Source of the DNA: an uncultured Actinomycetota bacterium | GTDB taxonomy: Bacteria; Actinomycetota; Actinomycetes; Propionibacteriales; Nocardioidaceae | Length of the DNA stretch: 64,000 nucleotides | Reading direction: 5' to 3' | NCBI GenBank assembly: GCA_963750495.1 | Contig: CAVVQV010000017.1 | Location: forward strand, 71,327-135,326 | Part shown: positions 4,968 to 59,650 of the stretch, one piece after another | How the letters are laid out: each line of letters opens with the position of its first letter | How positions within the stretch are numbered: position 1 is the first letter of the stretch | Made by a program: the position numbers and the translations under genes | Notes under the pieces: generated by a model | The model's database searches: none | The model's input: only the letters and a program-made list of their open reading frames with translations | Told to the model about the DNA's origin: nothing

Positions 4968-5378
4968 ATGACAACGACCCACGCGCAACGCAAAGCCCTC
5001 GGTGACTTCGGTGAACGTGTCGCCGCCCGATTTCTGGGCGATCTCGGCATGGTGGTTCTCGACCGCAACTGGCGATGCCCTGCGGGGGAGATCGACATCG
5101 TGGCGCTCGACCGGCGCGAGCTGGTCATCTGCGAGGTCAAGACCCGCACCAGCCGGCGGTTCGGTACTCCGTTCGAGGCGATCACCGTCGACAAGTTGGC
5201 TCGGCTGCGTCGACTCGGCTACCAGTGGGTCGAGGCCCACGGTGCCCACGGTGCCCACGGTGCCCACGGTGCCCACGGTGCCCAGCTGCCTTTCGCCCGG
5301 ATGCGCGTCGACGTTGTTTGCGTCGACGCGAGCGCGCGCGGCGCCGCATCCATCGAGCACGTGCGGGCGGTGGCGTGA
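4968..5378 (+). CDS. yraN: YraN family protein (UPF0102, predicted endonuclease fold)
   Basis: [43 protein letters not shown] is the YraN core. It carries an internal (AHG)5 insertion from a 9-bp tandem repeat. Confidence 0.88.
5235..5285 (+). repeat. 9-bp tandem repeat (GCCCACGGT) x5.6 inside yraN
   Basis: Five perfect units at 5235-5279 plus the partial GCCCAG. In frame, it encodes [16 protein letters not shown]. Confidence 0.97.
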
Positions 5379-10171: not shown

Positions 10172-11203
10172 ATGGCCGTCGTGACCATGCGCCAGCTGCT
10201 CGAGAGCGGCGTCCACTTCGGGCACCAGACCCGTCGTTGGAACCCGAAGATGAAGCGATTCATCATGACCGAGCGCAACGGCATCTACATCATCGACCTG
10301 CAGCAGTCGCTCGCCTACATCGACCGCGGGTACGCGTTCATCAAGAGCGCGGTGGCATCCGGCGGAAACGTCTTGTTCGTCGGCACCAAGAAGCAGGCGC
10401 AAGAGGCGATCTCCGAGCAGGCCAAGCGCGTCGGCATGCCGTTCGTCAACCAGCGCTGGCTCGGCGGCATGCTCACCAACTTCCAGACGGTTCACCAGCG
10501 TTTGCAGCGCCTCAAGGAGCTCGAGGAGATCAACTTCGACGATGTGGCTGGATCCAGCCGCACCAAGAAGGAGCTCCTCCAGATGAAGCGTGAGAAGGAC
10601 AAGCTCGACCGCACGCTCGGCGGCATCCGAGACATGGCCCGGGTTCCCGCGGCCGTCTGGATCGTCGACACCAACAAGGAACACCTCGCCGTCGACGAGG
10701 CCCGCAAGCTCGGTATCCCGATCGTCGCCATCCTCGACAGCAACTGCGACCCCGACGTCGTCGACTACCCGATTCCGGGCAACGACGACGCGATCCGGTC
10801 GGTGACGCTGCTGACGCGCGTGGTCGCTGATGCCGTGGCCGAGGGGCTCATGGCCCGCGCCGGTGTCAAGAGCGGTGCCGAGGTGACCGGTGAGGAGCTG
10901 GGCGCCGAGGAGCCGCTGGCCGAATGGGAGCGCGAGCTGCTCGGCGGTCAGGCCGACGAGTCAGCCGCGCAAGCCACCGGCGTCGACACCGCAACGACCG
11001 AGACGCCCGCTGCCGAGTCGACTGGCGCTGCGGTCGAGGCGTCCGAACAGCCGGCACCCGAAGCTGTGGACGCCGTTTCCGCATCGGCTGCCGAGACCGA
11101 GACCCCTGCCGCTGAGGCGCCTGCCGCTGAGGCGCCTGCCGCTGAGGCGCCTGCCGCTGAGGCGCCTGCCGCTGAGGCGGGCGACGACAGCACGACTGCC
11201 TGA
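10172..11203 (+). CDS. rpsB: 30S ribosomal protein S2 with a long acidic Ala/Glu/Pro C-terminal tail
   Basis: [30 protein letters not shown] 10172 lies 9 nt after AAGGAGGA. The tail contains (AEAPA)5. Confidence 0.97.
11105..11179 (+). repeat. 15-bp tandem repeat (CCTGCCGCTGAGGCG) x5 in the rpsB 3-prime tail
   Basis: Five perfect units. In frame, it encodes (PAAEA)5. Confidence 0.97.
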
Positions 11204-25824: not shown

Positions 25825-25866
25825 CCCATCCCCGCAGTCCCATCCCCGCAGTCCCATCCCCGCAGG
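25825..25866 (+). repeat. 14-bp tandem repeat x3 (CCCATCCCCGCAGT)
   Basis: Three head-to-tail copies in the DUF4331-TPR intergenic region. The last copy ends in G. Confidence 0.9.
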
Positions 25867-27232: not shown

Positions 27233-28900
27233 ATGACCCGTCCCGCACGCAAGTCCCTGCGTCGCCGGGCCCTGCTCTTCACGGTCCTGGTGGCAGGCCT
27301 GGTGCTCGGACCGGCGTACGCCGCAAGCGCCCACCCGCTCGGGAACTTCACGATCAACCATTTCAACGGCCTCCGTGTCACCGAGACGGCCATCACCGAC
27401 AACGCGGTGATCGACTCGGCTGAGCTCCCCACCATCTCCGACCGCGACACGGTGGACTCCGACGGCGACGGCACCATCACCACGGCCGAGCGAGCGGCGT
27501 ACGCCGTCGACCGCTGCGGCACCTTCGCGAACCAGGTCGTCCTGACGGTCGGGGGAGCCGTGACACCGTGGACCGTGACCCGGACGAGTTACACGTATCA
27601 GCCGGGCGCCGCCGGCCTCGAGACCGGCCGGCTCGAGTGCGGACTGGAGGCGAGCGTCGACCTGACGTCGCCGGCCCGCATCACGTTCGACGACCGGTAC
27701 CTGAGCCAGCGGATCGGCTGGCGGGAGATCACCGCGGTCGGGCAGGGCGTCAACCTCGGCGAACGGGACGTGGCCACGCAGAGCATCTCCGACGAGCTCC
27801 GTGCCTACCCGAACAACCTGCTCACCTCACCACTCGACCAGCGGTCGGTGACGTTCGATGCCAAGCCCGGTGCCGACTCCGGTGGGTCACCACTGCCGAC
27901 CGTGTCCGGCGCCGGACCGTTCTCGTCCATGCTCGCCGGCGTCACGACGCACCTGGACAGTCTCGTGGGCGGCGAGCACCTCACGCTCGGGGTGGGGTTG
28001 CTCGCGGTGCTCCTGTCCTTGCTGCTCGGCGCTTCCCACGCGGCATTGCCGGGGCACGGCAAGACCCTGATGGCCGCGTACATGGTCGGTACCCGGGGCA
28101 CTCCTCGCGACGCCGTGCTCATCGGCGCCACGGTCACCCTGGCGCACACGTCGGGCGTCCTCGTGCTGGGGCTGTTGTTCAACGCGTCCGCGTCGTTCGC
28201 CGGTGAGACCGTCCTTGCCGTGCTCGGCATCATCAGCGGACTGCTCGTGGCCGCCATCGGTGTCACGTTGGTGCGCGGCGCCTGGCGACGGCACCGGGTC
28301 AGCAGTGTCGACGAGCTGTGGGGTCACGGCCACGGCCACGGCCACGGCCACGGTCACGGCCACGGCCACGGTCACGGCCATGAGCAGGGGCACCCGGCCG
28401 CATCGGGACCCGACGATCGCCCGTCCGCCACCGGCGACGCCACCGAGCAGAGCTCCTCGGACACGCTCGTGCTGACGTCAGCGCCCGTCGGTGGGCCTGG
28501 TCCCGACCACGCGCATGACCACTCCCACGACCACGCCCGCGACCACGCCCACGCGAAGGGCGAGCAGGGGTTCCGCCGGATGACGCTGGTCGGCATGGGA
28601 CTGGCCGGCGGGCTGGTGCCGAGCCCTTCCGCGCTGATCGTGTTGCTCGGTGCGATCGCCCTTGGCCGGACAGTCTTCGGCATCGGTCTGGTGCTGGCCT
28701 ACGGCATCGGGATGGCCGCGACCCTCACCACGATCGGCTACCTGTTCGCCAAGCTGCCCGGTCGGTTGTCCCGGCTGCGGCGGTTCTCCACCCACCGCTG
28801 GCTGACCCGCCTCGCCACGGCCGGGCCGGTGCTCACGGCCGGCCTGGTTCTCGTCGTGGGCCTGGCACTGGCCTGGCGCAGCGCGAGCCCACTGGTCTGA
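27233..28900 (+). CDS. NicO/RcnA-type metal permease fused to an N-terminal extracytoplasmic domain
   Basis: Signal peptide ending AYAASA|HPLGNFTINHF. EF-hand-like loop DSDGDGTITTAE. NicO signature LLGASHAALPGHGKTLMAAYMVG. His-rich loop (GH)10...DHAHDHSHDHARDHAH. ATG 27233 lies 1 nt after the TPR stop. The ORF-track start at 26837 overlaps the TPR gene. Confidence 0.85.
   Translation: MTRPARKSLRRRALLFTVLVAGLVLGPAYAASAHPLGNFTINHFNGLRVTETAITDNAVIDSAELPTISDRDTVDSDGDGTITTAERAAYAVDRCGTFANQVVLTVGGAVTPWTVTRTSYTYQPGAAGLETGRLECGLEASVDLTSPARITFDDRYLSQRIGWREITAVGQGVNLGERDVATQSISDELRAYPNNLLTSPLDQRSVTFDAKPGADSGGSPLPTVSGAGPFSSMLAGVTTHLDSLVGGEHLTLGVGLLAVLLSLLLGASHAALPGHGKTLMAAYMVGTRGTPRDAVLIGATVTLAHTSGVLVLGLLFNASASFAGETVLAVLGIISGLLVAAIGVTLVRGAWRRHRVSSVDELWGHGHGHGHGHGHGHGHGHGHEQGHPAASGPDDRPSATGDATEQSSSDTLVLTSAPVGGPGPDHAHDHSHDHARDHAHAKGEQGFRRMTLVGMGLAGGLVPSPSALIVLLGAIALGRTVFGIGLVLAYGIGMAATLTTIGYLFAKLPGRLSRLRRFSTHRWLTRLATAGPVLTAGLVLVVGLALAWRSASPLV
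28322..28381 (+). repeat. in-frame GGYCAC microsatellite encoding (Gly-His)10
   Basis: GGT CAC (GGC CAC)4 GGT CAC (GGC CAC)2 GGT CAC GGC CAT inside the NicO cytoplasmic loop. Confidence 0.95.
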
Positions 28901-32615: not shown

Positions 32616-35048
32616 ATGATCGGCATCGTCGTGGTCTCGCACAGCCGAGCCCTCGCCGATGCAGCCGTCGGGCTCGCTCGCGAGATGGTCGACGCCGAGA
32701 CTGCACCGGCGATCGTCGTGGCGGCCGGCCTGGACGAGACGACGTTCGGTACCGACGCGACTGCGGTGTCGGCCGCGATCGAGCAGGTGGATTCACCCGA
32801 CGGTGTCCTCGTGCTGCTCGACCTCGGCAGTGCTGTCCTCAGTGGCGAGATGGCCCTGGAGTTCCTCGACCCGGACCTGGCCGGTCGCGTCCGGCTGTCC
32901 AGCGCTCCACTGGTCGAAGGTCTCGTCGCCGCCGTGGTGCTGGCGTCCACCGGTGCCGAGCTCGACGCCGTGGTGGCTGAGGCCGAGTCGGGGTTGTTGG
33001 CGAAGCAGTCCCACCTCGGCTCCGGCGGCGAGGCCGCCGCGCCGTCGGCAGCCGGGAGTGAGTCTGCGCGCCCGGACGCCACCACCGAGGTCACTGTGTC
33101 CAACCCGCACGGCCTCCATGCCCGCCCGGCTGCCAAGGTCGTCACACTCGTCCGCAGTTTCGACGCGACCGTGACACTGCGCAACCTGGACACCGGGAAA
33201 GGGCCGGTCCCTGCGGGCAGCCTGAGTGCGGTGGCCACGCTGGACGCCCGCCTGGGGCATCGGCTCGAGGTGTCGGCCTCGGGGGCACAGGCCGCTGATG
33301 CGCTGCGCGCCTTCGAGGAGCTGGCGGAGCGGGACTTCGACGACGTACCGGTGCCACCCTCGTCGCCGTCAAAGGTTGACGGCCCGGCGGCGGGGAGTGG
33401 TCTCGATCTGGCGATGGGGCCTGCTCTGGTCCTGAGCGCGACGGTCGACATATCCGCCTACGAGGCGGGGGACGGTCAGGCTGAGCTCGCCCGCTCGGCC
33501 CAGGCGGTCGATGCGGTCCGGGCTCGTCTCGAGGAGCTGCAACGGCGCACGGCCGAGACGTCCGGACCCGAGGCAGCCGACATCTTCGTCGCCCAGACGG
33601 CCCTGCTCGACGACCCCGAGATCACCGCGCCGGTCGACGACGCGATCGCGGCGGGAACACCGGCGCCGCAGGCCTGGCGTGACCGGCTGGACGCCGTGGC
33701 AGCACAGTTCGAAGGCCTCGCCGACGCCTACCAGCGCGAACGCGCGGCAGACGTGCGCAGCGTGCAGGCGAGTGTGCTGCGGGCGCTGACCGGTGAGGCG
33801 GAGACCGAGCTCGACACCGGTGGCGAGCCCGTGATCCTTGTCGTGGACGAGCTCGACGCTGCCACGGCCGCCTCGATCGACGCCGACGCCGTGGCAGGAG
33901 TGGTGACGATCGCGCGTGGTACCACGGGGCACGGCGTCATCGTGGCCTCCTCGCGCGGTATCCCGCTGATGACCGGTGCCGGTGCGGATGCCGCCGGGGT
34001 CCGTACCGGACAGCTGGTTTCCTTCGACGCTCGCAGCCACAGCTTCGTTGCCGACGTGAGTGCGGAGGAGCGGCGACGTTTCCCTGATCTCGTGGCCGAG
34101 CGGCGGCGCGAGCGAGAGCAGGTCGTGCAGGCGGCCCAGACGCCGGCGGTGACCCGCGACGGGACTGCGATCCCGGTGTTCGCGAACCTCGCCTCGGTCG
34201 CCGACGCGGACAGCGCGAGCGCCAACGGGGCCGAGGGCTCGGGCCTGGTCCGAACCGAGGTCCTGTTCGGTGACCGTTCGGTGGCACCGACGGTCGAGGA
34301 GCAGGTGGAGATGTTCCTGGCTCTGGCGAAGTCGTTGGGTGGCGCGCCGTTGACGATCCGGACGTGGGACATCGGCGGCGACAAGCCGCTGCCGTTCCTC
34401 GCCCAGGCTGCTGAGGCCAACCCGTTCCTGGGCGAGCGCGGGCTGCGGGTGTTCCGACGTCGGCCGGACTTGTTGCGGGACCAGCTCATCGCGATCTGGC
34501 AGGCCGCGCGTCAGACGCCGCTGCGGGTCATGTTCCCGATGGTCACCGAGCCGGCCGAGGTGGCGTTCGCGCGGGACCTGCTCGCGGCCGCTCGAGGAGA
34601 CGTCACCGGAGTCGACCTCTCGGTCGGCATCATGGTCGAGGTACCCGCTGCCGCCCTGACGGTGGAGTCCCTGGCCGCCGACCTCGACTTCGTCAGCATC
34701 GGGACCAACGACCTGACCCAGTACACGATGGCCGTCGACCGCGGCAACGACGCCGTGGCCGACCTCGCCGACCCGATGGGCCCGGCCGTGCTCCGCCTCA
34801 TCGACCGCGTGTGCCGCCGGCGCCCGCCGGGCGTCGAGGTGGCCGTCTGCGGTGACCTGGCGAGTCGCCCAGGCGTCATACCCCTGCTGCTCGGCCTGGG
34901 GGTCGACGAGCTCAGCTGTACGCCGCCCCGGGTGCCGGAGGTCAAGCAGGCGGTCCGGGCCACCGACCTCACCTCGGCCCGGGAGCTGGCGGCCGCCTGC
35001 CTGGCCGCCCCCGATGCCCCCTCCGTCCGCCGCCTCCTGCTTCGTTGA
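32616..35048 (+). CDS. dhaM: DhaM phosphoryl-donor subunit: EIIA(Man)-like + HPr + full-length PTS Enzyme I fusion
   Basis: MIGIVVVSHS (EIIA-Man His). NPHGLHARPAAKVV (HPr His). GTTGHGVIVASSRGIP (EI phospho-His). C-terminal PEP-binding barrel motifs GLVRTEVLF, IRTWDIGGDK, IMVEVPAA, FVSIGTNDLTQY and the catalytic Cys in VAVCGDLAS. Confidence 0.88.
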   Translation: MIGIVVVSHSRALADAAVGLAREMVDAETAPAIVVAAGLDETTFGTDATAVSAAIEQVDSPDGVLVLLDLGSAVLSGEMALEFLDPDLAGRVRLSSAPLVEGLVAAVVLASTGAELDAVVAEAESGLLAKQSHLGSGGEAAAPSAAGSESARPDATTEVTVSNPHGLHARPAAKVVTLVRSFDATVTLRNLDTGKGPVPAGSLSAVATLDARLGHRLEVSASGAQAADALRAFEELAERDFDDVPVPPSSPSKVDGPAAGSGLDLAMGPALVLSATVDISAYEAGDGQAELARSAQAVDAVRARLEELQRRTAETSGPEAADIFVAQTALLDDPEITAPVDDAIAAGTPAPQAWRDRLDAVAAQFEGLADAYQRERAADVRSVQASVLRALTGEAETELDTGGEPVILVVDELDAATAASIDADAVAGVVTIARGTTGHGVIVASSRGIPLMTGAGADAAGVRTGQLVSFDARSHSFVADVSAEERRRFPDLVAERRREREQVVQAAQTPAVTRDGTAIPVFANLASVADADSASANGAEGSGLVRTEVLFGDRSVAPTVEEQVEMFLALAKSLGGAPLTIRTWDIGGDKPLPFLAQAAEANPFLGERGLRVFRRRPDLLRDQLIAIWQAARQTPLRVMFPMVTEPAEVAFARDLLAAARGDVTGVDLSVGIMVEVPAAALTVESLAADLDFVSIGTNDLTQYTMAVDRGNDAVADLADPMGPAVLRLIDRVCRRRPPGVEVAVCGDLASRPGVIPLLLGLGVDELSCTPPRVPEVKQAVRATDLTSARELAAACLAAPDAPSVRRLLLR

Positions 35049-35110
35049 ACCGTGAGTTGTGGTCCTTTGAACCGTGAGTTGTGGTCCCTTGAACCGTGAG
35101 TTGTGGCGCT
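35045..35110 (+). repeat. 22-bp tandem repeat family, locus A (3 units)
   Basis: TTGAACCGTGAGTTGTGGTCCT / ...GTCCC / ...GCGCT, head to tail. The dhaM stop TGA (35046-35048) is inside unit 1. Confidence 0.97.
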
Positions 35111-35180
35111 GGATCGACGGTCAGCGGTCAGCTGCTGTGTCAGTAGCAGCCGGGTGGGCAGGCGGAGGTCCTGCGACGGC

Positions 35181-36566
35181 TCAGTGGCCACCGACGAGTG
35201 GTGACATCACGCGGGCGATGCGCGACGGCCGGCCGGTGCGACCCTCCTCGTAGTCTGCGAGTGACATGGCGCGCAGGCCAGCGTTGACACCGAGCCACCG
35301 CAGCGGCTCGGGCTCCCATCGGCGCGAGTGATGGTCGACCCACGGCAGCTCGACGAGATCGGAAGGCACCTCCCGGATCAGGTCCGCCAAGGTCCTTCCC
35401 GCCAGGTTGGTCGTCGTGACTCCGTCACCCACGTAGCCACCGGCCCAGCCGATGCCGGTCGTCCGGTCCAGACCGACAGACGCCATCCAGTCCCGCGGTA
35501 TGCCGAGGGGGCCACCCCAGGTATGGGAGTACCGCACGTCGCCCAGAGCCGGAAAGAGCTCGGCAAGCGTGGCACGCAGCTCGGCGAACACATGTTCGGC
35601 CCGGTCGTACTCGGGCGACACCGACGAAGCGAAGTGATACGGCGCCCCGCGTCCCCCGAAGACGATGCGGTCGTCGGCCGTGCGCTGGCCGTAGATGATC
35701 AGGTGGCGGTGGTCGGTGAAGGTCGGCGCATCGGCCAGGCCGATCGCGTCCCACGTGGTAGTAGGCAACGGCTCCGTGGCGACCACCAACGAGTAGACCG
35801 GCACCACCTGGCGTCGACGACCGGGAAGACCCGGCGTGTATCCCTCGGTCGCCCGGACGACGTACTCGGCACGGACGTTGCCCCGTACCGTCGTCACCAG
35901 GCTCGGCGCGAGTGCTGTCACTGCGGTCTGCTCGTAGATCACGACGCCGCGTCGCTCAGCTGCGGCGGCGAGACCGCGGACGAGCTTGGCCGGGTGGATC
36001 CGTGCGCAGTGCGGCGTGTACGTCGCACCGAGTGCACCCGCGGCTGCGGCCATGTCGGCGGTCTCACTCGCGGACAGCAGCCGCACGTCATCGACGGTGT
36101 CACCCCAGCCATGCGCCTCGTCGACTTCGTGCCGGGCGCGTTCGAGCTGGGCCTTGGTCCGGGCGAAGGCAACCGTGCCTCCGCGGTGGAAGCCACAGTC
36201 GATGCCCTCCTCGTCGGCGACCCGCTCGATCTCACCGATGCTGGCCCGCATCGCTGCTACCTGGGCGTTGGCAGCCTCGGGAGATGAGCCGGCCAACCGG
36301 GCCAACTTGGAGCGGGAGCTCGGGAACAGCGCGGACGCCCACCCGCCGTTGCGGCCCGAGGCGCCGAAGCCGGCGATGTCCCGCTCGAGCACAGCGATGC
36401 GAACGCTGGGGTCAGCGACCGCCAGGTAGTAGGCGGTCCACAGTCCGGTGAACCCCGCGCCCACGATCGCGACGTCGACATCCAGGTCGGCGTCGAGGGC
36501 GGGGCGGGGGAGGAGTGGGTCCCCGCAGGTGGCATGCCAGAGGGACAGATCGGCGTACGGGGCCAC
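35181..36566 (-). CDS. FAD-dependent oxidoreductase (DadA/PuuB-like amine oxidoreductase)
   Basis: N-terminal dinucleotide fold DVAIVGAGFTGLWTAYYL. The overall DAO-family layout and polyamine-gene context suggest a gamma-glutamylputrescine/amine oxidase type. Confidence 0.8.
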   Translation of the reverse strand: MAPYADLSLWHATCGDPLLPRPALDADLDVDVAIVGAGFTGLWTAYYLAVADPSVRIAVLERDIAGFGASGRNGGWASALFPSSRSKLARLAGSSPEAANAQVAAMRASIGEIERVADEEGIDCGFHRGGTVAFARTKAQLERARHEVDEAHGWGDTVDDVRLLSASETADMAAAAGALGATYTPHCARIHPAKLVRGLAAAAERRGVVIYEQTAVTALAPSLVTTVRGNVRAEYVVRATEGYTPGLPGRRRQVVPVYSLVVATEPLPTTTWDAIGLADAPTFTDHRHLIIYGQRTADDRIVFGGRGAPYHFASSVSPEYDRAEHVFAELRATLAELFPALGDVRYSHTWGGPLGIPRDWMASVGLDRTTGIGWAGGYVGDGVTTTNLAGRTLADLIREVPSDLVELPWVDHHSRRWEPEPLRWLGVNAGLRAMSLADYEEGRTGRPSRIARVMSPLVGGH

Positions 36567-47287: not shown

Positions 47288-48340
47288 GTGCCCTCCGGCG
47301 CCTGGGCCGACACCATCGACCGGCGTCTCCTGCTGGTCGTGTCGGCGGTGGTCTACGCCGGCGCGTTCAGCGCCTGGATGCTGCTGCCGACCTACACCGG
47401 CTATGCCCTCGGGTTCGTCCTGTGGGGGCTCTCGAGCGCCCTGATGTCGGGCACCTTCGAGTCGGCGCTGTACGACGAGCTCGTCCTTCGGGGAGCCGAT
47501 GCGGCGTACCCGGGCCTCATCGGATGGGCCCACTCCACCGCGATGATGGCCAACCTCGTGGCGACCCTGGCGGCAGCACCGTTGATCGCGCTCGGTGGCT
47601 ATGGCCTCGTCGGCTGGACGTCGGTGGCGATCGCCGGCGGGCAGGCGGTGCTGGCCGCGACCTTGCCTTTCTCGCCGTCGGCACGGAAACCGAACCGGTC
47701 GCACCATCTCTTGGCCAAGACAGAAGCGTTGGCGGCGCGGTACGTCGCGATGCTGCGTGCAGGCATCCGGGAGGCGTCGAGGTCGGTCGACGTCCGTCGT
47801 GTCGTCCTGCTCTCCTCGCTGCTGGTCGGGCTGACTGCCTACGACGAGTACTTTCCACTGGTCGCCAAGGACCACGGTGTCTCGACGTCGACGATCCCGC
47901 TGCTCATCGGGATGGCCGTCGTGGGGCAGGTCGTGGGTACCGCCCTGGCCGGGCGGACGGCCGGGATGAGCTCTCGCACGATCGCCGTCGTGGTCGTGGC
48001 CGGTGGCGGTCTGATCTCGCTCGGCGCGCTGGTCTGGCCGTACGCCGGGTTCGTCGCCATCGCAGTCGGCTACGGGCTGCTGAACAACACCATGATCGTC
48101 GCCGAGGCCCGGCTCCAGCAGGTGATCGCCGGTCCGGCTCGGGCGACGGTCACGTCGGTGTACGGGTTCGCGACCGAGGTGGTGGCGCTGGCTGTCTACG
48201 GGAGCTTCGCCGCGGCAGCCGGTTTCGTGTCCGTGCCCAGGCTCGTGGCGCTGCTCGGCATTCCGATCGTGGTCATCGCGTGGTCCGTCGGGCGGTGGTT
48301 CCCCGGACCGCCGAGGCGGCCGGCGGTCGAGGCGGGGTGA
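47288..48340 (+). CDS. MFS transporter (minimal ORF; homology continues upstream to 47123 and ATG 47096 is cut off by an in-frame TGA)
   Basis: Multi-TM protein. The same frame upstream reads VLPRRFRLRVLGYHASRDLVPLYSVYALLFGDHGVSTGQISTLFIIWSLTSFVFEVPSGAWAD, which is TM1-loop-TM2 of this MFS type. There is no ATG/GTG/TTG between 47123 and 47288. Confidence 0.75.
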   Translation: MPSGAWADTIDRRLLLVVSAVVYAGAFSAWMLLPTYTGYALGFVLWGLSSALMSGTFESALYDELVLRGADAAYPGLIGWAHSTAMMANLVATLAAAPLIALGGYGLVGWTSVAIAGGQAVLAATLPFSPSARKPNRSHHLLAKTEALAARYVAMLRAGIREASRSVDVRRVVLLSSLLVGLTAYDEYFPLVAKDHGVSTSTIPLLIGMAVVGQVVGTALAGRTAGMSSRTIAVVVVAGGGLISLGALVWPYAGFVAIAVGYGLLNNTMIVAEARLQQVIAGPARATVTSVYGFATEVVALAVYGSFAAAAGFVSVPRLVALLGIPIVVIAWSVGRWFPGPPRRPAVEAG

Positions 48341-48360
48341 TCTCGACAGGCTCGACCAGC

Positions 48361-48408
48361 GGGGTGGGCTTGATCAGCGGGGTGGGCTTGATCAGCGGGT
48401 GGGCTTGA

Positions 48409-48413
<5 letters not shown>
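48361..48413. repeat. 18-bp tandem repeat x3 (GGGGTGGGCTTGATCAGC) between convergent genes
   Basis: Units at 48361-48378 and 48379-48396, and a 17-nt unit at 48397-48413. A degenerate fourth copy (GGCTCGACCAGC) lies just upstream. The gcdH stop (48409-48411) lies in the last unit. Confidence 0.95.
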
Positions 48414-49646
<1,233 letters not shown>

Positions 49647-53024: not shown

Positions 53025-53839
53025 GTACGCCGGGGTTCCGCCTTTCGCGCGGCAGCACCTGGGCACTGCGCGGCCTGGTCGCGCTCGTGTTGGCGTTCAT
53101 CTACGTGCCGCTCGGCGTCGTCGTGATCAACTCGTTCAACTCCGACAAGACGTTCTCGTGGCCGCCCCGCAGCTTCACCCTCGAGTGGTGGCGGCGGGCC
53201 AAGGACAGCACGGGAATGATCAACGCGCTCCAGGAGTCGGTGAAGATCGGGCTCCTCGCCACGGCGATCGCGCTCGTGCTCGGCACGCTCGCGGCCTTCG
53301 CGTTGACGCGGCACCGCTTCTTCGGGCGGGAGGCCGTGTCGCTGCTGATCGTGCTGCCGATCGCCCTGCCGGGCATCGTCACGGGCATCGCCCTGAGCAA
53401 CGCGTTCACCACGATCCTCGGTGTCGGACTGTCGGTCTGGTCGCTCGTCATCGCGCATGCGACCTTCTGCATCGTGGTCGTGTTCAACAACGTGGTGGCC
53501 AGGCTGCGACGGTTGGGCGGGAACATCGAGGAAGCCTCGATGGACCTCGGGGCGACCCGGCTGACGACCTTCCGCCTCATCACGCTGCCCAACCTCGGCG
53601 GGGCGCTGGTCGCCGGCGCGCTGCTGGCCTTTGCGTTGTCGTTCGACGAGATCGTCGTCACGACGTTCACCGCACCGGCTGACGTCCAGACGCTACCGCT
53701 GTGGATCTACAACAACCTGCTCAGCCGGCAGCAGGCGCCCATCGTCAACGTCACCGCGGCGGCGCTGATCCTGGTGTCGGTGCTGCCGATCTACCTCTCG
53801 CAGAAGATCTCCGGCGACGAGTCCGCCGGCCGGCTCTGA
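53021..53839 (+). CDS. ABC transporter permease, second system
   Basis: EAA loop EEASMDLGATRLTTFRLITLPN. 4-nt overlap with the upstream permease gene. Confidence 0.9.
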   Translation: MSTPGFRLSRGSTWALRGLVALVLAFIYVPLGVVVINSFNSDKTFSWPPRSFTLEWWRRAKDSTGMINALQESVKIGLLATAIALVLGTLAAFALTRHRFFGREAVSLLIVLPIALPGIVTGIALSNAFTTILGVGLSVWSLVIAHATFCIVVVFNNVVARLRRLGGNIEEASMDLGATRLTTFRLITLPNLGGALVAGALLAFALSFDEIVVTTFTAPADVQTLPLWIYNNLLSRQQAPIVNVTAAALILVSVLPIYLSQKISGDESAGRL

Positions 53840-53884
53840 CCCCCCGCCCCGCGCTGACCCCCGTCCCGCGCTGCCCCTCTCGCC

Positions 53885-53910
53885 GGGCAGCCCCCGTCGC
53901 CGGGCTGCCC
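53885..53910 (+). terminator. GC-rich hairpin after the permease gene
   Basis: GGGCAGCCC-n8-GGGCTGCCC (9-bp stem), flanked by two 19-nt direct repeats CCCCCGTCCCGCGCTGCCC (53858-53876 and 53908-53926). Confidence 0.4.
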
Positions 53911-53939
53911 CCGTCCCGCGCTGCCCACGGTGGCTCTCC

Positions 53940-53987
53940 GTGTTTGTCTTGTGCGGTGTTTGTCTTGTGCGGTGTTTGTCTTGTGAA
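53940..53987 (+). repeat. 16-bp tandem repeat x3 (GTGTTTGTCTTGTGCG), low GC
   Basis: Units at 53940-53955, 53956-53971 and 53972-53987. The last unit ends in AA instead of CG. Confidence 0.95.
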
Positions 53988-54062
53988 CAAGCCACCCACT
54001 CTGTTCACAAGGCAAACCCGCCTTGCTCTGTAGCCAGGTGGCTTGTGAACTAGGCAAACGTC
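53974..54062. promoter_or_regulatory. operator-like cluster of inverted/direct motif copies upstream of the aldehyde dehydrogenase gene
   Basis: GTTTGTCTTGTGAAC (53974-53988) and its inverted copy GTTCACAAGGCAAAC (54003-54017, 1 mismatch). A third CTTGTGAAC at 54042-54050 is followed by TAGGCAAAC. AAGCCACC (53989-53996) and GGTGGCTT (54037-54044) are inverted. Confidence 0.35.
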
Positions 54063-55775: not shown

Positions 55776-55879
55776 TCGCTTCGCTCCTCCGCCTTGCGAT
55801 GCATCCACCCGACCACCGCCCACTCGCCGGTTCAGATGGCTTGGGCTACAGACTTCTTTCGATGTTCGGAAAGGCATAC

Positions 55880-57079
55880 ATGAAGATTTTGCTAGTTGGT
55901 GCGGGGGGCGTGGGGGCGGCGTTCGCTGCGATCGCAGCGCGGCGGGACTTCTTCGAACGCGTGGTCATCGCCGACTACGACCTGTCCCGCGCCGAGCGGG
56001 CGGCCGCGGACGACGACAGATTCGACGCAGCCCAGGTCGACGCCTCGGACGCAGCATCGATCGAGGCACTGGTGCGCGCGCACCAGATCACGCACGTCAT
56101 GAACGCAGTTGACCCGCGCTTCGTGATGCCGATCTTCAACGGTGCGTACGCCGGGGGAGCGGACTACCTCGACATGGCGATGAGCTTGTCCCGGCCGCAC
56201 CCCGAGGCCCCATACGAGCAGACTGGGGTGATGCTCGGCGACGAGCAGTTCGCGGTCGCCGGCGACTGGGAGGCGGCCGGGCGCCTGGCACTGGTCGGCA
56301 TCGGCGTCGAGCCTGGCCTGTCGGACGTGTTCGCGCGGTACGCCGCCGACCATCTCTTCAGCGAGATCGACGAGCTCGGCGTACGCGACGGTGCCAACCT
56401 CACCGTCGACGGCTACGACTTTGCGCCGTCCTTCTCGATCTGGACGACGATCGAGGAATGCCTCAACCCGCCGGTCGTGTGGGAGAAAGACCGTGGCTGG
56501 TTCACGACCGAGCCGTTCTCCGAGCCGGAGGTCTTCGAGTTTCCGGAGGGCATCGGGCCGGTCGAGTGCGTGAACGTCGAGCACGAAGAGGTGCTCCTCA
56601 TGCCACGCTGGGTCGAGGCCAAGCGGGCGACGTTCAAGTACGGGCTCGGGGACGAGTTCATCGATGTGCTGAAGGTTCTGCACAAGCTCGGGCTCGACAA
56701 GACCGACAAGCTCCGGGTCGGCGGCGTCGAGGTCAGCCCGCGCGACGTGGTGGCCGCGAGCCTGCCTGACCCGGCCACGCTGGGCGACAAGATGCGGGGC
56801 AAGACCTGCGCGGGCTTGTTCGTCACGGGCAGGGGCAAGGACGGGCAGCCGCGGGCCACCTACCTGTATCACGTGGTCGACAACGAGTGGTCGATGCGCG
56901 AGTACGGCCACCAGTGCGTGGTCTGGCAGACCGCGGTCAACCCGGTCGTGGCGCTCGAGCTCCTGGCGGACGGCACCTGGTCGGGTGCCGGCGTGCTCGG
57001 CCCGGAGGCGTTCGACGCCGTACCCTTCCTCGACCTGCTGACCGCCTACGGATCCCCCTGGTCCCTCGAAGACCGTTGA
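55880..57079 (+). CDS. saccharopine dehydrogenase family oxidoreductase
   Basis: N-terminal Rossmann fold MKILLVGAGGVGAAFAAIA and family-typical length. ATG 55880 follows GGAAAGG. The TGA stop lies inside the first 22-bp repeat unit. Confidence 0.8.
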   Translation: MKILLVGAGGVGAAFAAIAARRDFFERVVIADYDLSRAERAAADDDRFDAAQVDASDAASIEALVRAHQITHVMNAVDPRFVMPIFNGAYAGGADYLDMAMSLSRPHPEAPYEQTGVMLGDEQFAVAGDWEAAGRLALVGIGVEPGLSDVFARYAADHLFSEIDELGVRDGANLTVDGYDFAPSFSIWTTIEECLNPPVVWEKDRGWFTTEPFSEPEVFEFPEGIGPVECVNVEHEEVLLMPRWVEAKRATFKYGLGDEFIDVLKVLHKLGLDKTDKLRVGGVEVSPRDVVAASLPDPATLGDKMRGKTCAGLFVTGRGKDGQPRATYLYHVVDNEWSMREYGHQCVVWQTAVNPVVALELLADGTWSGAGVLGPEAFDAVPFLDLLTAYGSPWSLEDR

Positions 57080-57163
57080 ACCGTGAGTTGTGGCTCCTTC
57101 AACCGTGAGTTGTGACTCCTTCAACCGTGAGTTGTGGCTCCTCGAACCGTGAGTTGTGGTGCT
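57076..57163 (+). repeat. 22-bp tandem repeat family, locus B (4 units)
   Basis: TTGAACCGTGAGTTGTGGCTCC / TTCAACCGTGAGTTGTGACTCC / TTCAACCGTGAGTTGTGGCTCC / TCGAACCGTGAGTTGTGGTGCT. The stop TGA at 57077-57079 is in unit 1. Confidence 0.97.
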
Positions 57164-57183
57164 TCGTCACACGGAAGGTCGGA

Positions 57184-58250
57184 ATGCTGAGAACACGTCT
57201 TGGTTGGCTTCTCGACGTGAGCACCTCTCAAGATCCCGAAGTCCGCCCGCTGTCCCTGCTCGATTTCGTCGACATTCCGTCAGGGCTGTCGGCAACCGAG
57301 GCGATGGCGCGGACCGTCACGACGGCCCAGGCAGCGGACCGCCTGGGCTACAAGCGCTTTTGGATCTCTGAGCATCACAACTTCGAAGGACTGGCGAGCA
57401 GCTCGCCAGAGATCCTGATCAGCCACGTGGCCTCGGCCACTCGGAGCATCCGGTAGGAGCCGCCGGGATCATGCTGCCGAACCACGCGCCGCTCAAGGTC
57501 GCCGAGTGGTTCAAGACTCTCGAGATGCTGCACCCGGGTCGCATCGACCTCGGCCTGGGGAGGGCACCGGGCACTGACCAGGTCACGGCATTCGCGCTAC
57601 GGCGCTCGCGCGAGTCAGCGGGTGCTCCTGACTTTCCGGAGCAGGCTGCCGAGCTGATCGCGTTCCTCACCGACGAATGGCCGGACGAGCATCCCTTCGC
57701 CACGGTGCGAGCCACGCCGGTCGTGGATGGTCAGCCCGAACTGCTGATGCTGGGATCGAGCGGTTGGGGATCGGCGTTCGCGGCCGTGAACGGGATGACC
57801 TCGGTCTTCGCACACCACATGAGCCCCGACCTCGCGGTCGACGCGCTTCAGGCGTACCGGCGAGACTTCCGACCGTCCGAGCTGGGTAGTGCGCCGCGCG
57901 TCATCGTGTCCGCTCTCGCGCTGGCCTCGCACGATCCCGATGTGGTGGCCGACTTCCGCGCCGGCTGGACCCTGGGTATGCGCTATATCCGCAGCGGTGC
58001 GAAGCGTAGGCCGACGCCCGAGGAGATCCGCGAGTTCCGGACGTCGTCGAAGTACGCCGAGATCGAACCGACGCTGCGGGGGCGTGTCTTCGCGGGGTCG
58101 CCCGACGTGGTTGCCCGCGACCTGGCGGCGCTCGCAGATGCTGCCGGCGCCGATGAACTGACGCTGGTCGCGCCGACGCCCGACCACGAAGCCAAGCTGG
58201 CCTCGCTCGAACTCCTGGCCAAGCAGTGGGGCCTGGAGCCGCAAGTCTGA
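57184..58250 (+). pseudogene. LLM-class (luciferase-like) flavin-dependent oxidoreductase, frameshifted
   Basis: N-part (57184-57456: PLSLLDFVDIPSG...[14 protein letters not shown]...SATRSIR*) and C-part (57471-58250: [34 protein letters not shown]...) are in different frames. Restoring one G at 57451-57453 gives [18 protein letters not shown]. Confidence 0.85.
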
Positions 58251-58268
58251 CGTCCATACTGAGCTTTC

Positions 58269-58408
58269 GGCTCGAGGGGCCACAACTCACGGCTCGAGGG
58301 GCCACAACTCACGGTTCGAGGGGCCACAACTCACGGTTCGAGGGGCCACAACTCACGGTTCGAGGGGCCACAACTCACGGTTCAAGGAGCCACAACTCAC
58401 GGTTCAAC
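58269..58408 (-). repeat. 22-bp tandem repeat family, locus C (6 units plus an 8-nt partial), reverse orientation
   Basis: Plus strand: GGCTCGAGGGGCCACAACTCAC x2, GGTTCGAGGGGCCACAACTCAC x3, GGTTCAAGGAGCCACAACTCAC, then GGTTCAAC. On the minus strand the array begins 10 nt after the TAG of the 58418-59650 gene. Confidence 0.97.
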
Positions 58409-58417
58409 GAAGGCGGG

Positions 58418-59650
58418 CTAGGAGTCGAGGGCGGTCGTGATGGCTGAGGCGAGGTCGTCGACCTCGGAGTCGGTCATCACGAAGGCGGGGGAGACCTGGA
58501 TGCCGCCGGCACCGACCGCGCGGGTGGCCACGCCGTGTGACCGCAGCATCTTGGCCAGCGCCATCGCCTCGGCGGGATCGCTGAGCTGGATCGCCGCCAG
58601 CGCACCGGTTCCACACCGCACCTCGACGACGCGTTCGTGATCCGCCAGCGGCTTGAGCCGCGCAGCCAGCGACGACTCGAGGCGAGCCGACTCGTCCAAC
58701 AGGTTCTCCCGCTCGAGGATGTCGAGGTTGGCCAGCGCCACCGCCGCCGCGGCGGCATGTCCGGAGTACGTGTAGCCGTGCCGCCACCACACCCCGGCGT
58801 CCGGCTGGAAGAACGGCTCGGACACCTTCGGCGCGATCAGCACCGCACCCATAGGCAGGTAGCCCGAGGTCAGACCCTTGGCTGTGGTGATCATGTCGGG
58901 CTCGAGCCCGAACCGACCGCTTGCGAACCAGGCGCCGCCGATGCGCCCGTAGCCCGTCACGACCTCGTCGGCCACGAACAGCACGTCGTACTCCGTGCAC
59001 ACCTTGCGGACGTCGGCGAGATAACCGTCCGGCGGTGGGTAGACGCCGCCCGCGCCGATCACGGGCTCGCAGAAGAACGCCGCGACGTTCTCCGGCCCGA
59101 GCCGCTCGATCGTCGTACGCAGGTCTCCGGCGTCATCCCACGCGACCGTGGCGCTGTCGTGCACCAGGTCGCCGTAACCCTCGCGGTTACCCGGAATCCC
59201 GGCGATCGACGTCCCGGCGTAGTGCATGCCGTGGTAGGCCTTCTGCCGTCCGATCAGGTAGCGCCGCTGGGGCTGACCCATCTCGTTCCAGTACCGACGG
59301 GCCAGCTTCGCCGCGGTGTCGACCGAGTCCGAGCCACCCGACGTGAAGAACACCTTCGAGCCGGGCACCGGTGCGATCCCTGCGAGCCGTTCCGCGAGCG
59401 CCACCGTCGGCTCGGTCACGTAGTCGCCGAACGTGCTGTACGCCGCCATCTTGCTCATCTGCTCGGCAGCGACCTCGCCGAGCTCGGCACGGCCATGTCC
59501 GACGTTGGTGAACCAGAGCCCCGCCGTGGCGTCGAGGTAACGGTTGCCCTCGGGGTCGAAGACGTACGTACCCTCGCCGCGCGCGATGACGAACTCGCCG
59601 TTGCGTTCGACGGCTCCCATGTCCGAGAACGGATGCCATAGCGCGCCCAT
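58418..59650 (-). CDS. class III (omega) aminotransferase
   Basis: MGALWHPFSDMG..., TNVGHGR, ADEVVTGYGRIGG, and the PLP-lysine region ITTAKGLTSGYLPMG. ATG 59650 follows AAGGAG. Confidence 0.88.
   Translation of the reverse strand: MGALWHPFSDMGAVERNGEFVIARGEGTYVFDPEGNRYLDATAGLWFTNVGHGRAELGEVAAEQMSKMAAYSTFGDYVTEPTVALAERLAGIAPVPGSKVFFTSGGSDSVDTAAKLARRYWNEMGQPQRRYLIGRQKAYHGMHYAGTSIAGIPGNREGYGDLVHDSATVAWDDAGDLRTTIERLGPENVAAFFCEPVIGAGGVYPPPDGYLADVRKVCTEYDVLFVADEVVTGYGRIGGAWFASGRFGLEPDMITTAKGLTSGYLPMGAVLIAPKVSEPFFQPDAGVWWRHGYTYSGHAAAAAVALANLDILERENLLDESARLESSLAARLKPLADHERVVEVRCGTGALAAIQLSDPAEAMALAKMLRSHGVATRAVGAGGIQVSPAFVMTDSEVDDLASAITTALDS

Follow-up and report, generated by a model that had tools for sequence, protein, structure and literature searches.

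The 64-kb window, by which we mean the whole stretch of 64,000 nucleotides of Nocardioidaceae DNA that was analysed, carries a dhaK-dhaL-dhaM gene set whose last gene ends inside a short tandem repeat. DhaM is an EIIA-man / HPr / enzyme-I fusion (one EIIA-man, one HPr and three enzyme-I domains) and meets a convergent FAD oxidoreductase gene across the following features, which include array A (locus A).

32616–35048, + strand: dhaM, last gene of dhaK-dhaL-dhaM, 810 aa from the M at 32616
35005–35044, + strand: C-rich, G-poor tract before array A unit 1, within the dhaM coding end
35040–35044, + strand: junction motif CTTCG, directly before array A unit 1
35045–35110, + strand: array A, three 22-bp units, each TTGAACCGTGAGTTGTGG followed by TCCT, TCCC or CGCT
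35046–35048, + strand: dhaM stop TGA, bases 2–4 of array A unit 1
35111–35180, no strand: spacer from array A to the convergent gene, containing a relic of a glyoxalase 3′ end
35181–36566, − strand: FAD oxidoreductase gene, convergent with dhaM

Unit 1 of array A is TTGAACCGTGAGTTGTGGTCCT (35045–35066), unit 2, ending in TCCC, spans 35067–35088, and unit 3, ending in GCGCT, spans 35089–35110. TRF assigned the array a period of 22, with 2.8 copies and 97% matches, and each unit scored 35.6 bits with a position-weight matrix whose null maximum was 17. A preliminary description of this DNA had already proposed these units, with the dhaM stop at bases 2–4 of the first, and both the sequence and TRF bear this out; it had also likened the CTTCG before the stop to the tail of a repeat unit at another array in the window, locus C, where CTTCG does precede unit 1. 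In dhaM, CTTCG together with T35045 makes up the codons for two extra residues, Leu-Arg; the gene's final two codons and its stop lie in the edge or junction of the array. The 40 nt ending at 35045 contain 23 C and 8 G. On the far side of the array, ∼35 nt of the spacer are what is left of a glyoxalase gene's 3′ end; the related loci L114 and L115 have this gene intact.

DhaM orthologues without an array stop one or two codons earlier, at a conserved VRxLL motif followed by their own TAG or TGA. The end reads GTC CGC GCC CTG CTG TAG (VRALL-stop) in L118 and CTC CTC TGA (IRELL-stop) in L117, and many further orthologues end at VRxLL. The window gene ends CTC CTG CTT CGT TGA (VRRLL-LR-stop), and the five closest DhaM sequences recovered likewise run one or two residues beyond the motif. 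Three of these relatives were checked in DNA, and in all three the array is in the same place and the stop lies in unit 1, with ends of VRHLL-AP-stop in L114, VRALL-R-stop in L115 and VHTLL-R-stop in L116; P0246, compared as protein only, ends VRALL-AR-stop. Because array-less orthologues end earlier and with other codons, the dhaM stop and its last one or two codons are repeat or junction sequence. Array-less orthologues sharing the last residue and the same codons, which the preliminary description had named as evidence against its claim, were absent, since both L118 and L117 differ. Its statement that the repeat defines the C-terminus of DhaM is therefore right for the stop and the last one or two codons, but the enzyme is one or two residues longer than its orthologues rather than truncated. 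As to whether residues were removed or replaced, the alignment indicates that the repeat replaced the native stop and added one or two junk residues, with no conserved residue lost.

The 4-fold synonymous sites of dhaM differ between the window and L114, L115 and L116 by 0.34, 0.48 and 0.54, respectively, while the 18-nt repeat core differs at 1, 1 and 2–4 positions. Conservation of the core thus far exceeds that of synonymous sites, its divergence being well under the neutral rate, and since the arrangement is common to lineages that have diverged this far, the joining of dhaM to the array is old and not a recent event in this genome. A fifth dhaM junction, suspected at L063(−) from the tail VVRTLLP-stop, was ruled out by tblastn.

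Two further arrays, B and C, lie in inverted orientation around a single gene.

55799–57079, + strand: saccharopine-dehydrogenase-like gene; its stop TGA (57077–57079) is the TGA of array B unit 1
57076–57163, + strand: array B, four units
57164–58275, + strand: gene for a luciferase-like monooxygenase, lying between inverted arrays B and C; it carries a frameshift in the window
58276–58407, − strand: array C, six units and part of a seventh, which reaches to about 58259; unit 1 is at 58386–58407
58408–58420, − strand: native stop and leader of an aminotransferase gene, TAG at 58418–58420 followed by the 10-nt CCCGCCTTCG

The saccharopine-dehydrogenase-like gene is a second window gene that ends in the TGA of a unit 1, which the preliminary description had passed over. 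Locus C shows the unfused state, in which the class-III aminotransferase gene reads ALDS-TAG-CCCGCCTTCG-array. In the sister genome L050 the same locus reads ALDR-TGA, the TGA being that of unit 1, and a 14-nt deletion took both the spacer and the native stop. Members of this aminotransferase family have 410 aa and an ALDx-stop ending nearly everywhere; the L126 protein ends ALDSPR-stop, with its stop in unit 1 of a variant array, and the presence of an array at this locus is patchy among relatives. A tail of APTR-stop, considered as array-derived, is native by DNA (L125). Copy number also varies, with 4 versus about 1.7 units and 6 versus 4 units in the window and L050. The preliminary description had held that array A inserted or expanded into dhaM rather than merely lying downstream of it. 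The native stop is indeed gone, but since the deletion in L050 took place beside an array that was already adjacent, an array that lay downstream and was then fused to the gene is at least as likely as insertion or expansion into it.

All three arrays belong to one family with the core CCGTGAGTTGTGG, which we found in about 34 arrays across the window and related Nocardioidaceae MAGs, each with 2–7 head-to-tail 22-bp units. The tandem 22-mers occur in five or more MAG assemblies (CAWFGV01, CAVUMY01, CAVQJX01, JANLYC01, DATIBI01) and a few metagenome contigs; loci in MAGs were examined as 8-kb blocks, and genes in them were called with a rough GC3-based caller. In the window, a 15-mer core occurs 13 times with ≤3 mismatches, against 1.3 expected and with no shuffle reaching 13, and every occurrence falls in array A (+), B (+) or C (−). 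Since only three of the ∼47 window genes carry an array, and a position-weight-matrix scan of the 64 kb found no solitary or relic units, the distribution is more in keeping with a sporadic element than with a general punctuation of the genome. Units are contiguous, spaced by 22 bp and rarely by 21 or 23, and are therefore not a CRISPR array, as unique spacers are lacking. Each consists of a conserved core and a variable linker, with 7 G and 5 C, and unit 1 is the most canonical. Variants are specific to a lineage or an array, as in TTGAGCC (L114), CCGTGGGTTCCGG (L116 and L126), CCGCGGG (L097) and CCGATCC (L120), and those set beside the canonical form include GGGTTCCGG and CCGATCC. The TTGA head, and hence the +1 stop, is not universal, given that units begin with GCGA in L065 and CCGA in L120.

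Searches outside these genomes returned little. Collections of plasmids (72,556 plasmids), phages and viral contigs contained no similar arrays, and Rfam gave no match at gathering score in the whole window and nothing on the arrays at E ≤ 10 in 56900–58600. We found no description of the sequence, or of 22-bp repeats in actinobacteria that correspond to it, in the literature searched, so the family has apparently been undescribed until now. A metagenome scan with the canonical tandem pattern added one locus only, because variants such as that of L126 escape the pattern. An 18-bp repeat at 48349–48415, considered as a relative of the 22-mer, was not significant, with 13% of shuffles scoring as well. 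When flanks were compared between unlinked arrays, only a short CCGCCTTCG leader recurred, which is unconvincing.

The arrays sit flush with gene ends. By the rough gene calls, 29 of the 34 arrays have unit 1 on the side of a co-oriented gene's 3′ end, with the stop at −24 to +8; arrays run with transcription in eight of nine co-directional spacers, and about half of all arrays lie at convergent junctions. The stop is a TGA at +1 or +8 of unit 1 in 14 arrays, and as these represent 9 of ∼22 distinct genes, capture of the stop codon is a property of the family and not special to dhaM. Each unit in the window lineage has two TGAs, at bases 2–4 and 9–11, and since a 22-bp period shifts the reading frame from one unit to the next, these close all three forward frames within two units, while the reverse strand is nearly stop-free. 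Ahead of unit 1, the leader ends in YTCG family-wide, and most arrays have TCG immediately before the unit. Over the 40 nt upstream of unit 1 (31 arrays), the C content is 0.50 and the G content 0.19–0.25, compared with 0.36 and 0.34 at 103 control gene ends, which gives a C–G skew of +0.33 to +0.45 versus about 0 in the controls. Correspondingly, array-bearing orthologues have 5–10 G in their last 40 nt and array-less ones 10–20.

Two classes of known repeat resemble this family. Mycobacterial interspersed repetitive units (MIRUs) are 40–100 bp long and carry a small ORF that overlaps the start and stop of its neighbours, with translational coupling; their structure was reportedly described by Supply et al. 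in 1997. Our arrays share with MIRUs an actinobacterial host, short head-to-tail units, variable copy number, dispersed intergenic sites, orientation with neighbouring genes and translational signals that overlap those of the adjacent gene. Enterobacteria and pseudomonads carry REP/BIME elements, imperfect palindromes with a hairpin fold, for which roles in mRNA 3′-end stability, termination and protein binding have been proposed. Like the arrays, they are extragenic, dispersed, frequent at 3′ ends and convergent junctions, often clustered, and homogeneous within a lineage but different between lineages; unlike them, the array units are non-palindromic and the arrays fold worse than shuffles. 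REP elements are also associated with a RAYT (IS200/IS605-like) transposase, whereas no such gene is known for the arrays. For MIRUs, which are mobile repeats inserting at gene boundaries, the overlap of their own ORF signals with those of the neighbour is described as minimising the harm of insertion (PMC12548453). The arrays differ from MIRUs, as the latter are described, in a 22-bp unit (versus 40–100 bp) that is not a multiple of 3, has no ORF and supplies only a stop, by way of stops in three frames rather than a coupled mini-ORF; they also overlap stop codons and not start codons, have a C-rich leader, apparently share no sequence similarity with MIRUs and occur in Nocardioidaceae.

Given that the stop overlap at dhaM recurs at other genes and is old, that a deletion can produce it, that the core is conserved and that variants are genome- or lineage-specific, all as shown above, we lean, with moderate confidence, towards locus A being a copy of a dispersed, lineage-restricted, MIRU/REP-like intergenic minisatellite, so far seen only in a small clade of uncultured Nocardioidaceae. 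The arrays occupy very short gene-boundary spacers, unit 1 usually lying 3–24 nt behind a co-oriented stop or over it. Because they have stops in every forward frame, they act as a built-in fail-safe terminator of translation and can be fused to ORFs at low cost: should the few bases between gene and array be lost or overwritten along with the native stop, the ORF would extend by 1–4 codons and stop in unit 1. The stop has been captured in this way at dhaM (+2 residues), at the locus-B gene and at the locus-C gene of the sister genome. The family may spread and stay homogeneous through a sequence-specific partner or ectopic conversion, and it may sit at gene ends because pyrimidine-rich spacers there are preferred for insertion or tolerate it. 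We infer mobility purely from dispersal, patchiness and sequence homogeneity; neither an enzyme that could mobilise the arrays nor a target-site duplication turned up at the loci examined, and no identical copy was seen at more than one site. At dhaM the array has stayed in place while the lineages diverged deeply, and its core is strongly conserved, neither of which a purely selfish or neutral repeat would require. The G-depleted coding ends of array-bearing orthologues, together with the array that fills the spacer in L114 where L118 has a hairpin, hint at a function in the host, and the arrays may have a role as terminators or protein-binding sites.

That role is the substance of a reading we regard as rather unlikely, namely that array and C-rich leader form a host gene-end module, either a Rho-type or other factor-dependent terminator or the platform of a clade-specific protein that blocks read-through between tightly packed and mostly convergent genes, the stop overlap being a side effect of very tight packing around an element under selection. 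The C-rich, G-poor 40-nt tract before unit 1 and the G-depleted ends of array-bearing orthologues fit it, as do the orientation in co-directional spacers, the share of arrays at convergent junctions, a core conserved far below the synonymous rate and a 22-bp period equal to two DNA helical turns. The RNA of the three window arrays is less structured than shuffles (MFE z of +0.78, +0.94 and +1.57), for which reason REP-like, hairpin-terminator and riboswitch ideas were dropped. Moreover, dhaM and the oxidoreductase gene of array-less L118 are separated by a hairpin of −50 kcal/mol (z −7.4), and in L114 the 64-nt spacer is the array alone. Rho-dependent terminators (rut sites) are similar in part: they too end transcription units with unstructured RNA that is rich in C and poor in G, and lack a hairpin and a U-tract. 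However, neither a conserved sequence nor strict periodicity marks rut sites, the array units have more G than C and so are not rut-like, and Rho does not require a conserved 13-mer. The arrays lack a hairpin, a U-tract and a terminator consensus, and intrinsic terminator-like sites were found in neither 34700–35500 nor 56800–58700. Also at odds with a general module are its rarity (just 3 of ∼47 window genes), the five or so arrays turned towards a divergent gene's 5′ end (L092+/L108+, L082, L022, L007) and the failure to identify a candidate binding protein. A bolder form, which we consider unlikely, makes the arrays recognition sites of an undescribed, clade-specific gene-end system, either a machinery mobilising single-gene cassettes into convergent spacers or a dedicated protein-bound terminator/insulator. 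If true, the former would be a bacterial counterpart of foldback-type elements with inverted 22-bp stacks, the latter would replace hairpin terminators, and the stops in three frames would be an adaptation for direct fusion to coding sequence.

Mobilisation can also be framed more conventionally, with the arrays as terminal inverted repeats of non-autonomous elements that carry single genes into convergent spacers, as stacks of 22-bp recognition sites of the kind at Tn7/Mu-type ends or in eukaryotic foldback elements, and with solo arrays as one-ended remnants. We think this improbable, although six inverted pairs, unit 1 outermost, do have one small gene inside each.

Window B/C: monooxygenase (LLM)
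L043: AbiEi/MTES_1575
L063: DUF3097
L067: HAD
L097: tRNA_edit
L116: TrmO

The genes flanking B and C are directly convergent, without the monooxygenase gene, in array-less L122 and L123, and so are dhaM and the oxidoreductase gene in array-less L118 and L119, while array-bearing lineages have extra genes between the latter two (glyoxalase, or TrmO and CorA). A private variant is common to both L097 arrays, and the most canonical unit is unit 1, as expected of a cleavage-proximal site. Tn7 sits beside the 3′ end of glmS, and the sites of TnsB (Tn7) and MuA (Mu) are stacked at transposon ends; the arrays resemble these ends and foldback termini in their direct stacks of about 22-bp sites, in the six pairs inverted between the ends of a segment with the outermost unit most canonical, and resemble Tn7 at glmS in adjoining a gene 3′ end. 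Unlike Tn7/Mu ends, however, they come with no transposase or integrase at the loci examined, no target-site duplication in the flanks of the window B/C, L063 and L067 pairs, and no repeated cargo, the enclosed genes being ordinary and all different, with no cassette at two sites. About 20 of the 34 arrays stand alone, the geometry at L092 is reversed, unit 1 pointing inward, and differences in gene content are common anyway among relatives at 65–86% identity. The 'empty' spacer of L122 even holds a 14/22 unit-like relic, so the arrays may predate gene insertion. Very unlikely in our view are operator- or iteron-like sites for transcription or replication (response-regulator direct repeats, plasmid-type iterons, partition sites). 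Non-palindromic 22-bp direct repeats at helical phase, with a conserved core and a variable linker and with a few arrays in divergent promoter regions (L082, L092+), would suit them, but most arrays lie at 3′ ends or convergent junctions, where there is nothing to regulate, beside unrelated metabolic genes rather than rep or par; the plasmid collection held nothing similar, and a promoter consensus scan found no sigma-70-like promoter in or near the arrays. Resemblances to a tRNA T-arm, an ECF-sigma promoter (TGAACC-N16-CGT) and a DnaA box were dropped on inspection by eye, and so were an elemental pause consensus and TTGA/GTGA start–stop coupling, for which the chance expectation is roughly 0.5–0.7. 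Coincidence, in which a local slippage repeat arose downstream of dhaM and the native TGA fell in it by chance, is scarcely credible: this high-GC genome uses TGA more than any other stop and DhaM ends ≤2 residues from the family norm, but the unit recurs at about 34 unlinked sites in several genomes, unit 1 supplies the stop of nine distinct genes, orthologues without an array end earlier and use other codons, and a deletion that makes such a fusion is directly visible between locus C and L050.

This repeat family repeatedly rewrites the last codons and stop of ordinary enzymes, whose ends would be taken for native C-termini in annotation and comparative analyses. It offers a clean natural example of a non-coding repeat that can be fused to ORFs at little cost, since it holds stops in every frame. 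As arrays vary in copy number, they could serve as strain-typing markers for these soil Nocardioidaceae in the manner of VNTRs. Finally, the strong conservation of the core, the lineage variants, the depletion of G at gene ends and the pairs of inverted arrays that flank newly acquired genes suggest that the arrays have a partner, protein or RNA, that is worth finding.

The preliminary description was right that dhaM takes its stop and last two codons from a 22-bp repeat: the TGA at 35046–35048 comprises bases 2–4 of the first unit (unit 1) of array A. The sequence at 35040–35110 reads cttcg TTGAACCGTGAGTTGTGGTCCT TTGAACCGTGAGTTGTGGTCCC TTGAACCGTGAGTTGTGGCGCT, and TRF reports 2.8 copies of period 22 with 97% matches. 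The window contains 13 matches to a 15-nt core at up to three mismatches, where chance would give 1.3; all of them lie within one of three arrays, and a position-weight-matrix scan of the window found no solitary units outside them.

32616 (Met) to 35048, forward strand: dhaM, 810 aa, with EIIA-man, HPr and three enzyme-I domains; by synteny the final gene of a dhaK-dhaL-dhaM operon
35045–35110, forward strand: array A, 3 units
57076–57163, forward strand: array B, 4 units
58276–58407, reverse strand: array C, 6 units and a partial one

At array B, the unit 1 TGA is likewise the stop of a saccharopine-dehydrogenase-like gene (55799–57079). At array C, the class-III aminotransferase gene (reverse strand) has its own TAG at 58418–58420, followed by a short spacer and then unit 1.

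One scan of 185,579 species genomes returned, among the matches listed, tandem copies in several MAGs, all Nocardioidaceae or labelled only 'uncultured Actinomycetota'; single matches in other genomes were rejected as chance. Scan matches and loci fetched via orthologous proteins together gave at least about 34 genuine arrays of 2–7 units, a lower bound. A strongly diverged member, (TTGAGTGCCGGGTTCCGGGTTG)x6, lies at the orthologous aminotransferase end of the related locus L126 (4236–4365) and keeps the period of 22, the TTGA start and the supply of the stop; because a search by exact pattern overlooks such variants, these counts understate the family's extent. Conserved positions of the unit are GA.CCG.G.GTTG.GG, with a variable, mostly pyrimidine linker (bases 19–22 and 1–2). 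Almost every unit 1 reads tcgTTGAACCGTGAGTTGTGG. Drift shows in the inner units (TCGAACC, TTCAACC, TTGAGCC), which have been homogenised inside each array; the last unit is ragged.

By the calls of a simple GC3-based gene caller at the MAG loci, 29 of 34 arrays have the 3′ end of a co-oriented gene against their unit-1 side, its stop falling between −24 and +8; for 14 of those 29 (9 distinct genes of about 22) a TGA of unit 1 is the stop. Genes stopping there end in ...R* (stop at +1) or ...VEP* (stop at +8). About five arrays (L092+/L108+, L082, L022 and L007) face the start of a divergent gene instead. The array often fills the whole spacer, as at the dhaM locus L114, where a convergent glyoxalase gene has its stop 2 nt past unit 3. 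On the forward strand two units are enough to place a TGA in every frame; the reverse strand has almost none. The 40 nt before unit 1 (31 arrays) are C-rich and G-poor (C 0.50, G 0.19–0.25), while 103 control gene ends from the same loci have no C/G skew; in the last 40 nt of the three window genes, array-bearing orthologues have 5–10 G against 10–20 in array-less ones.

The five closest DhaM proteins recovered (88% and 79% identity, two cluster members, and 73%) end 1–2 residues beyond a conserved ...VRxLL, and all three relatives checked at the DNA level carry the array at exactly the same place, with the dhaM stop in unit 1. No array was found for DhaM orthologues of 64–67% identity, whose proteins terminate at the motif itself, which is also the terminus of many Kribbella DhaM proteins.

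Gene ends in the window and at related loci
dhaM, window: ...CTC CTG CTT CGT TGA, VRRLL-LR*
dhaM, L115 (array): CTC CTT CGT TGA, VRALL-R*
dhaM, L116 (array): CTC CTC CGT TGA, VHTLL-R*
dhaM, L114 (array): CTC CTC GCT CCT TGA, VRHLL-AP*
DhaM orthologue P0246 (known from protein alone): VRALL-AR*
dhaM, L118 (array-less): ...GTC CGC GCC CTG CTG TAG
dhaM, L117 (array-less): ...CGC GAG CTC CTC TGA
Aminotransferase, window: native, GAC TCC TAG CCCGCCTTCG, then unit 1
Aminotransferase, L050 (sister genome, protein ~98% identical): without the 14 nt CTCCTAGCCCGCCT; GAT CGT TGA, ALDR*, in unit 1
Aminotransferase, L126 (83%): ALDS-PR*, stop in unit 1 of the variant array

Since array-less orthologues stop at VRxLL and array-bearing ones 1–2 residues later, the repeat and its YTCG junction replaced the native stop. 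The earlier proposal that the repeat defines the enzyme's C-terminus thus holds; no conserved residue is missing, and 1–2 non-conserved residues were added. An array that first lay downstream and was then fused to the gene is at least as likely as one that inserted or expanded into its end. The arrangement is old: at four-fold degenerate sites, dhaM of the window differs from that of L114, L115 and L116, which share the array, by 0.34, 0.48 and 0.54.

Against this synonymous divergence, the 18-nt cores of L114, L115 and L116 depart from that of the window at just 1, 1 and 2–4 positions. The same core is common to unlinked arrays within one genome, and variants particular to deeper lineages occur (CCGTGGGTTCCGG in L116, TTGAGTGCCGGGTTCCGGGTTG in L126; CCGCGGG in both arrays of the L097 pair; heads GCGAACC in L065 and CCGATCC in L120). 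Such a pattern is not that of neutral decay; it fits co-evolution with a sequence-specific partner or concerted evolution across the genome.

In our reading the family is an intergenic minisatellite, mobile or concerted, that resembles MIRUs and REPs. MIRUs overlap translational signals of neighbouring genes (PMC12548453), as the 22-bp arrays do, but the arrays have neither the internal ORF and unit size that define MIRUs nor the hairpin of REPs, and therefore belong to that general kind and to neither family. Array RNA or single-stranded DNA folds worse than shuffled sequence, Rfam gave no match to the arrays, and no consensus promoter or terminator was found at them; in the array-less L118 a very strong hairpin (−50 kcal/mol, z −7.4) makes up the dhaM/oxidoreductase spacer. 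A serious rival, possible though in our view doubtful, is that the arrays are a host module, a factor-dependent terminator or protein-bound insulator at tightly packed gene ends; their presence at only three of about 47 window genes argues against a general punctuation system.

That the arrays are transposon ends is weaker still, and we consider it improbable. Six pairs of arrays are inverted, with unit 1 on the outside, and a single small gene lies inside each (monooxygenase, AbiEi/MTES_1575, DUF3097, HAD, tRNA_edit or TrmO). In the array-less L122 and L123 no monooxygenase separates the genes that flank arrays B and C in the window; the two converge directly, across spacers of 37 and 8 nt. 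In L118 and L119, dhaM likewise converges directly on the oxidoreductase gene, whereas in array-bearing lineages a glyoxalase (L114 and L115; a relic in the window) or TrmO and CorA (L116) lie between them. This association of arrays with gene turnover hints at cassette-like insertion, but the loci examined showed no target duplication, transposase or repeated cargo, and synteny differences of this kind are common at this divergence. The 'empty' 37-nt L122 spacer between the aminotransferase and saccharopine-dehydrogenase genes (5234–5269) also counts against it, retaining the leader CCCGCCTCG and a 22-mer with 14/22 identity to the unit, including GGTTCCGGCC as in the L116 variant, which may be a relic of a lost array. 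Searches of plasmids, phages and viral contigs gave no match to the repeat.

Several of these intervals have features of their own. The luciferase-like monooxygenase gene between B and C (57112–58250) lies in two frames (ORFs 57112–57456 and 57471–58250), the second matching residues 95–352 of the intact 354-aa L050 orthologue at 92% identity; either a frameshift has made it a pseudogene or the assembly is wrong here. After array A (35111–35180), about 35 nt (GGTCAGCTGCTGTG...) can be aligned with the 3′ end of a glyoxalase-family gene; L114 and L115 keep this gene whole, facing dhaM convergently, so it was deleted in the window lineage. The inverted pair of L097 (CAVQJX010000026.1, 5841–5962 and 6528–6656), enclosing a tRNA_edit (YbaK-like) gene, has a private variant, TTGACCCGCGGGTTGTGG, in both arrays while other arrays of that MAG are canonical, so the two arms of a pair seem to evolve together. 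The L092 pair (CAWFGV010000010.1, 5628–6264) has the opposite geometry, unit 1 facing a HIT-family gene on both sides. Its upstream array stops 22 nt short of the start codon, and its C-rich leader is therefore the complement of the Shine-Dalgarno region; were both arrays transcribed, some 130 nt of the 5′ UTR would be complementary to the 3′ UTR.

Other tandem repeats occur in the window. An 18-bp repeat at 48338–48415 (GGGCTTGATCAGCGGGGT, 3.8 copies) fills another convergent spacer, starting a few bases past a forward-strand TGA; as read by eye, the stop of the reverse-strand gene (48409–48411) lies inside its last unit, in a palindrome TGATCA. If so, a second repeat in the window supplies a stop; kinship with the 22-mer was rejected, the two sequences being no more alike than chance allows. 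The long spacer at 53840–54060, between a permease stop (53837–53839) and an aldehyde dehydrogenase gene (54219), holds a C-rich ~17-bp repeat (CCCCCGTCCCGCGCTG, ~5 copies), then a perfect 16-bp repeat (GTGTTTGTCTTGTGCG x2.9) and after it palindrome-like motifs resembling operator sites (TTGTGAACAAG / TGTTCACAAG / CTTGTGAAC). Further perfect or near-perfect repeats lie at 25825–25865, 5235–5284, 11105–11179, 28325–28380 and 49024–49070 (periods 14, 9, 15, 6 and 6); any whose period is a multiple of 3 is probably coding, unlike the 14-bp repeat (CCCATCCCCGCAGT x2.9).

The aminotransferase indicates how a gene comes to stop in unit 1. This family has 410 aa and ends in ALDx* almost everywhere, and the L050 protein keeps the window's length despite the missing 14 nt. 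From such comparisons, losing a short spacer with the native stop is tolerated and recurrent, because unit 1 catches the ribosome at once. At dhaM the same loss would most likely have occurred once, in the common ancestor of the array-bearing lineages. The repeat does define the end of dhaM, then, though not as a peculiarity of that gene: stops within the repeat are a trait of the family, explained by its TGAs in three frames and by spacer erosion.
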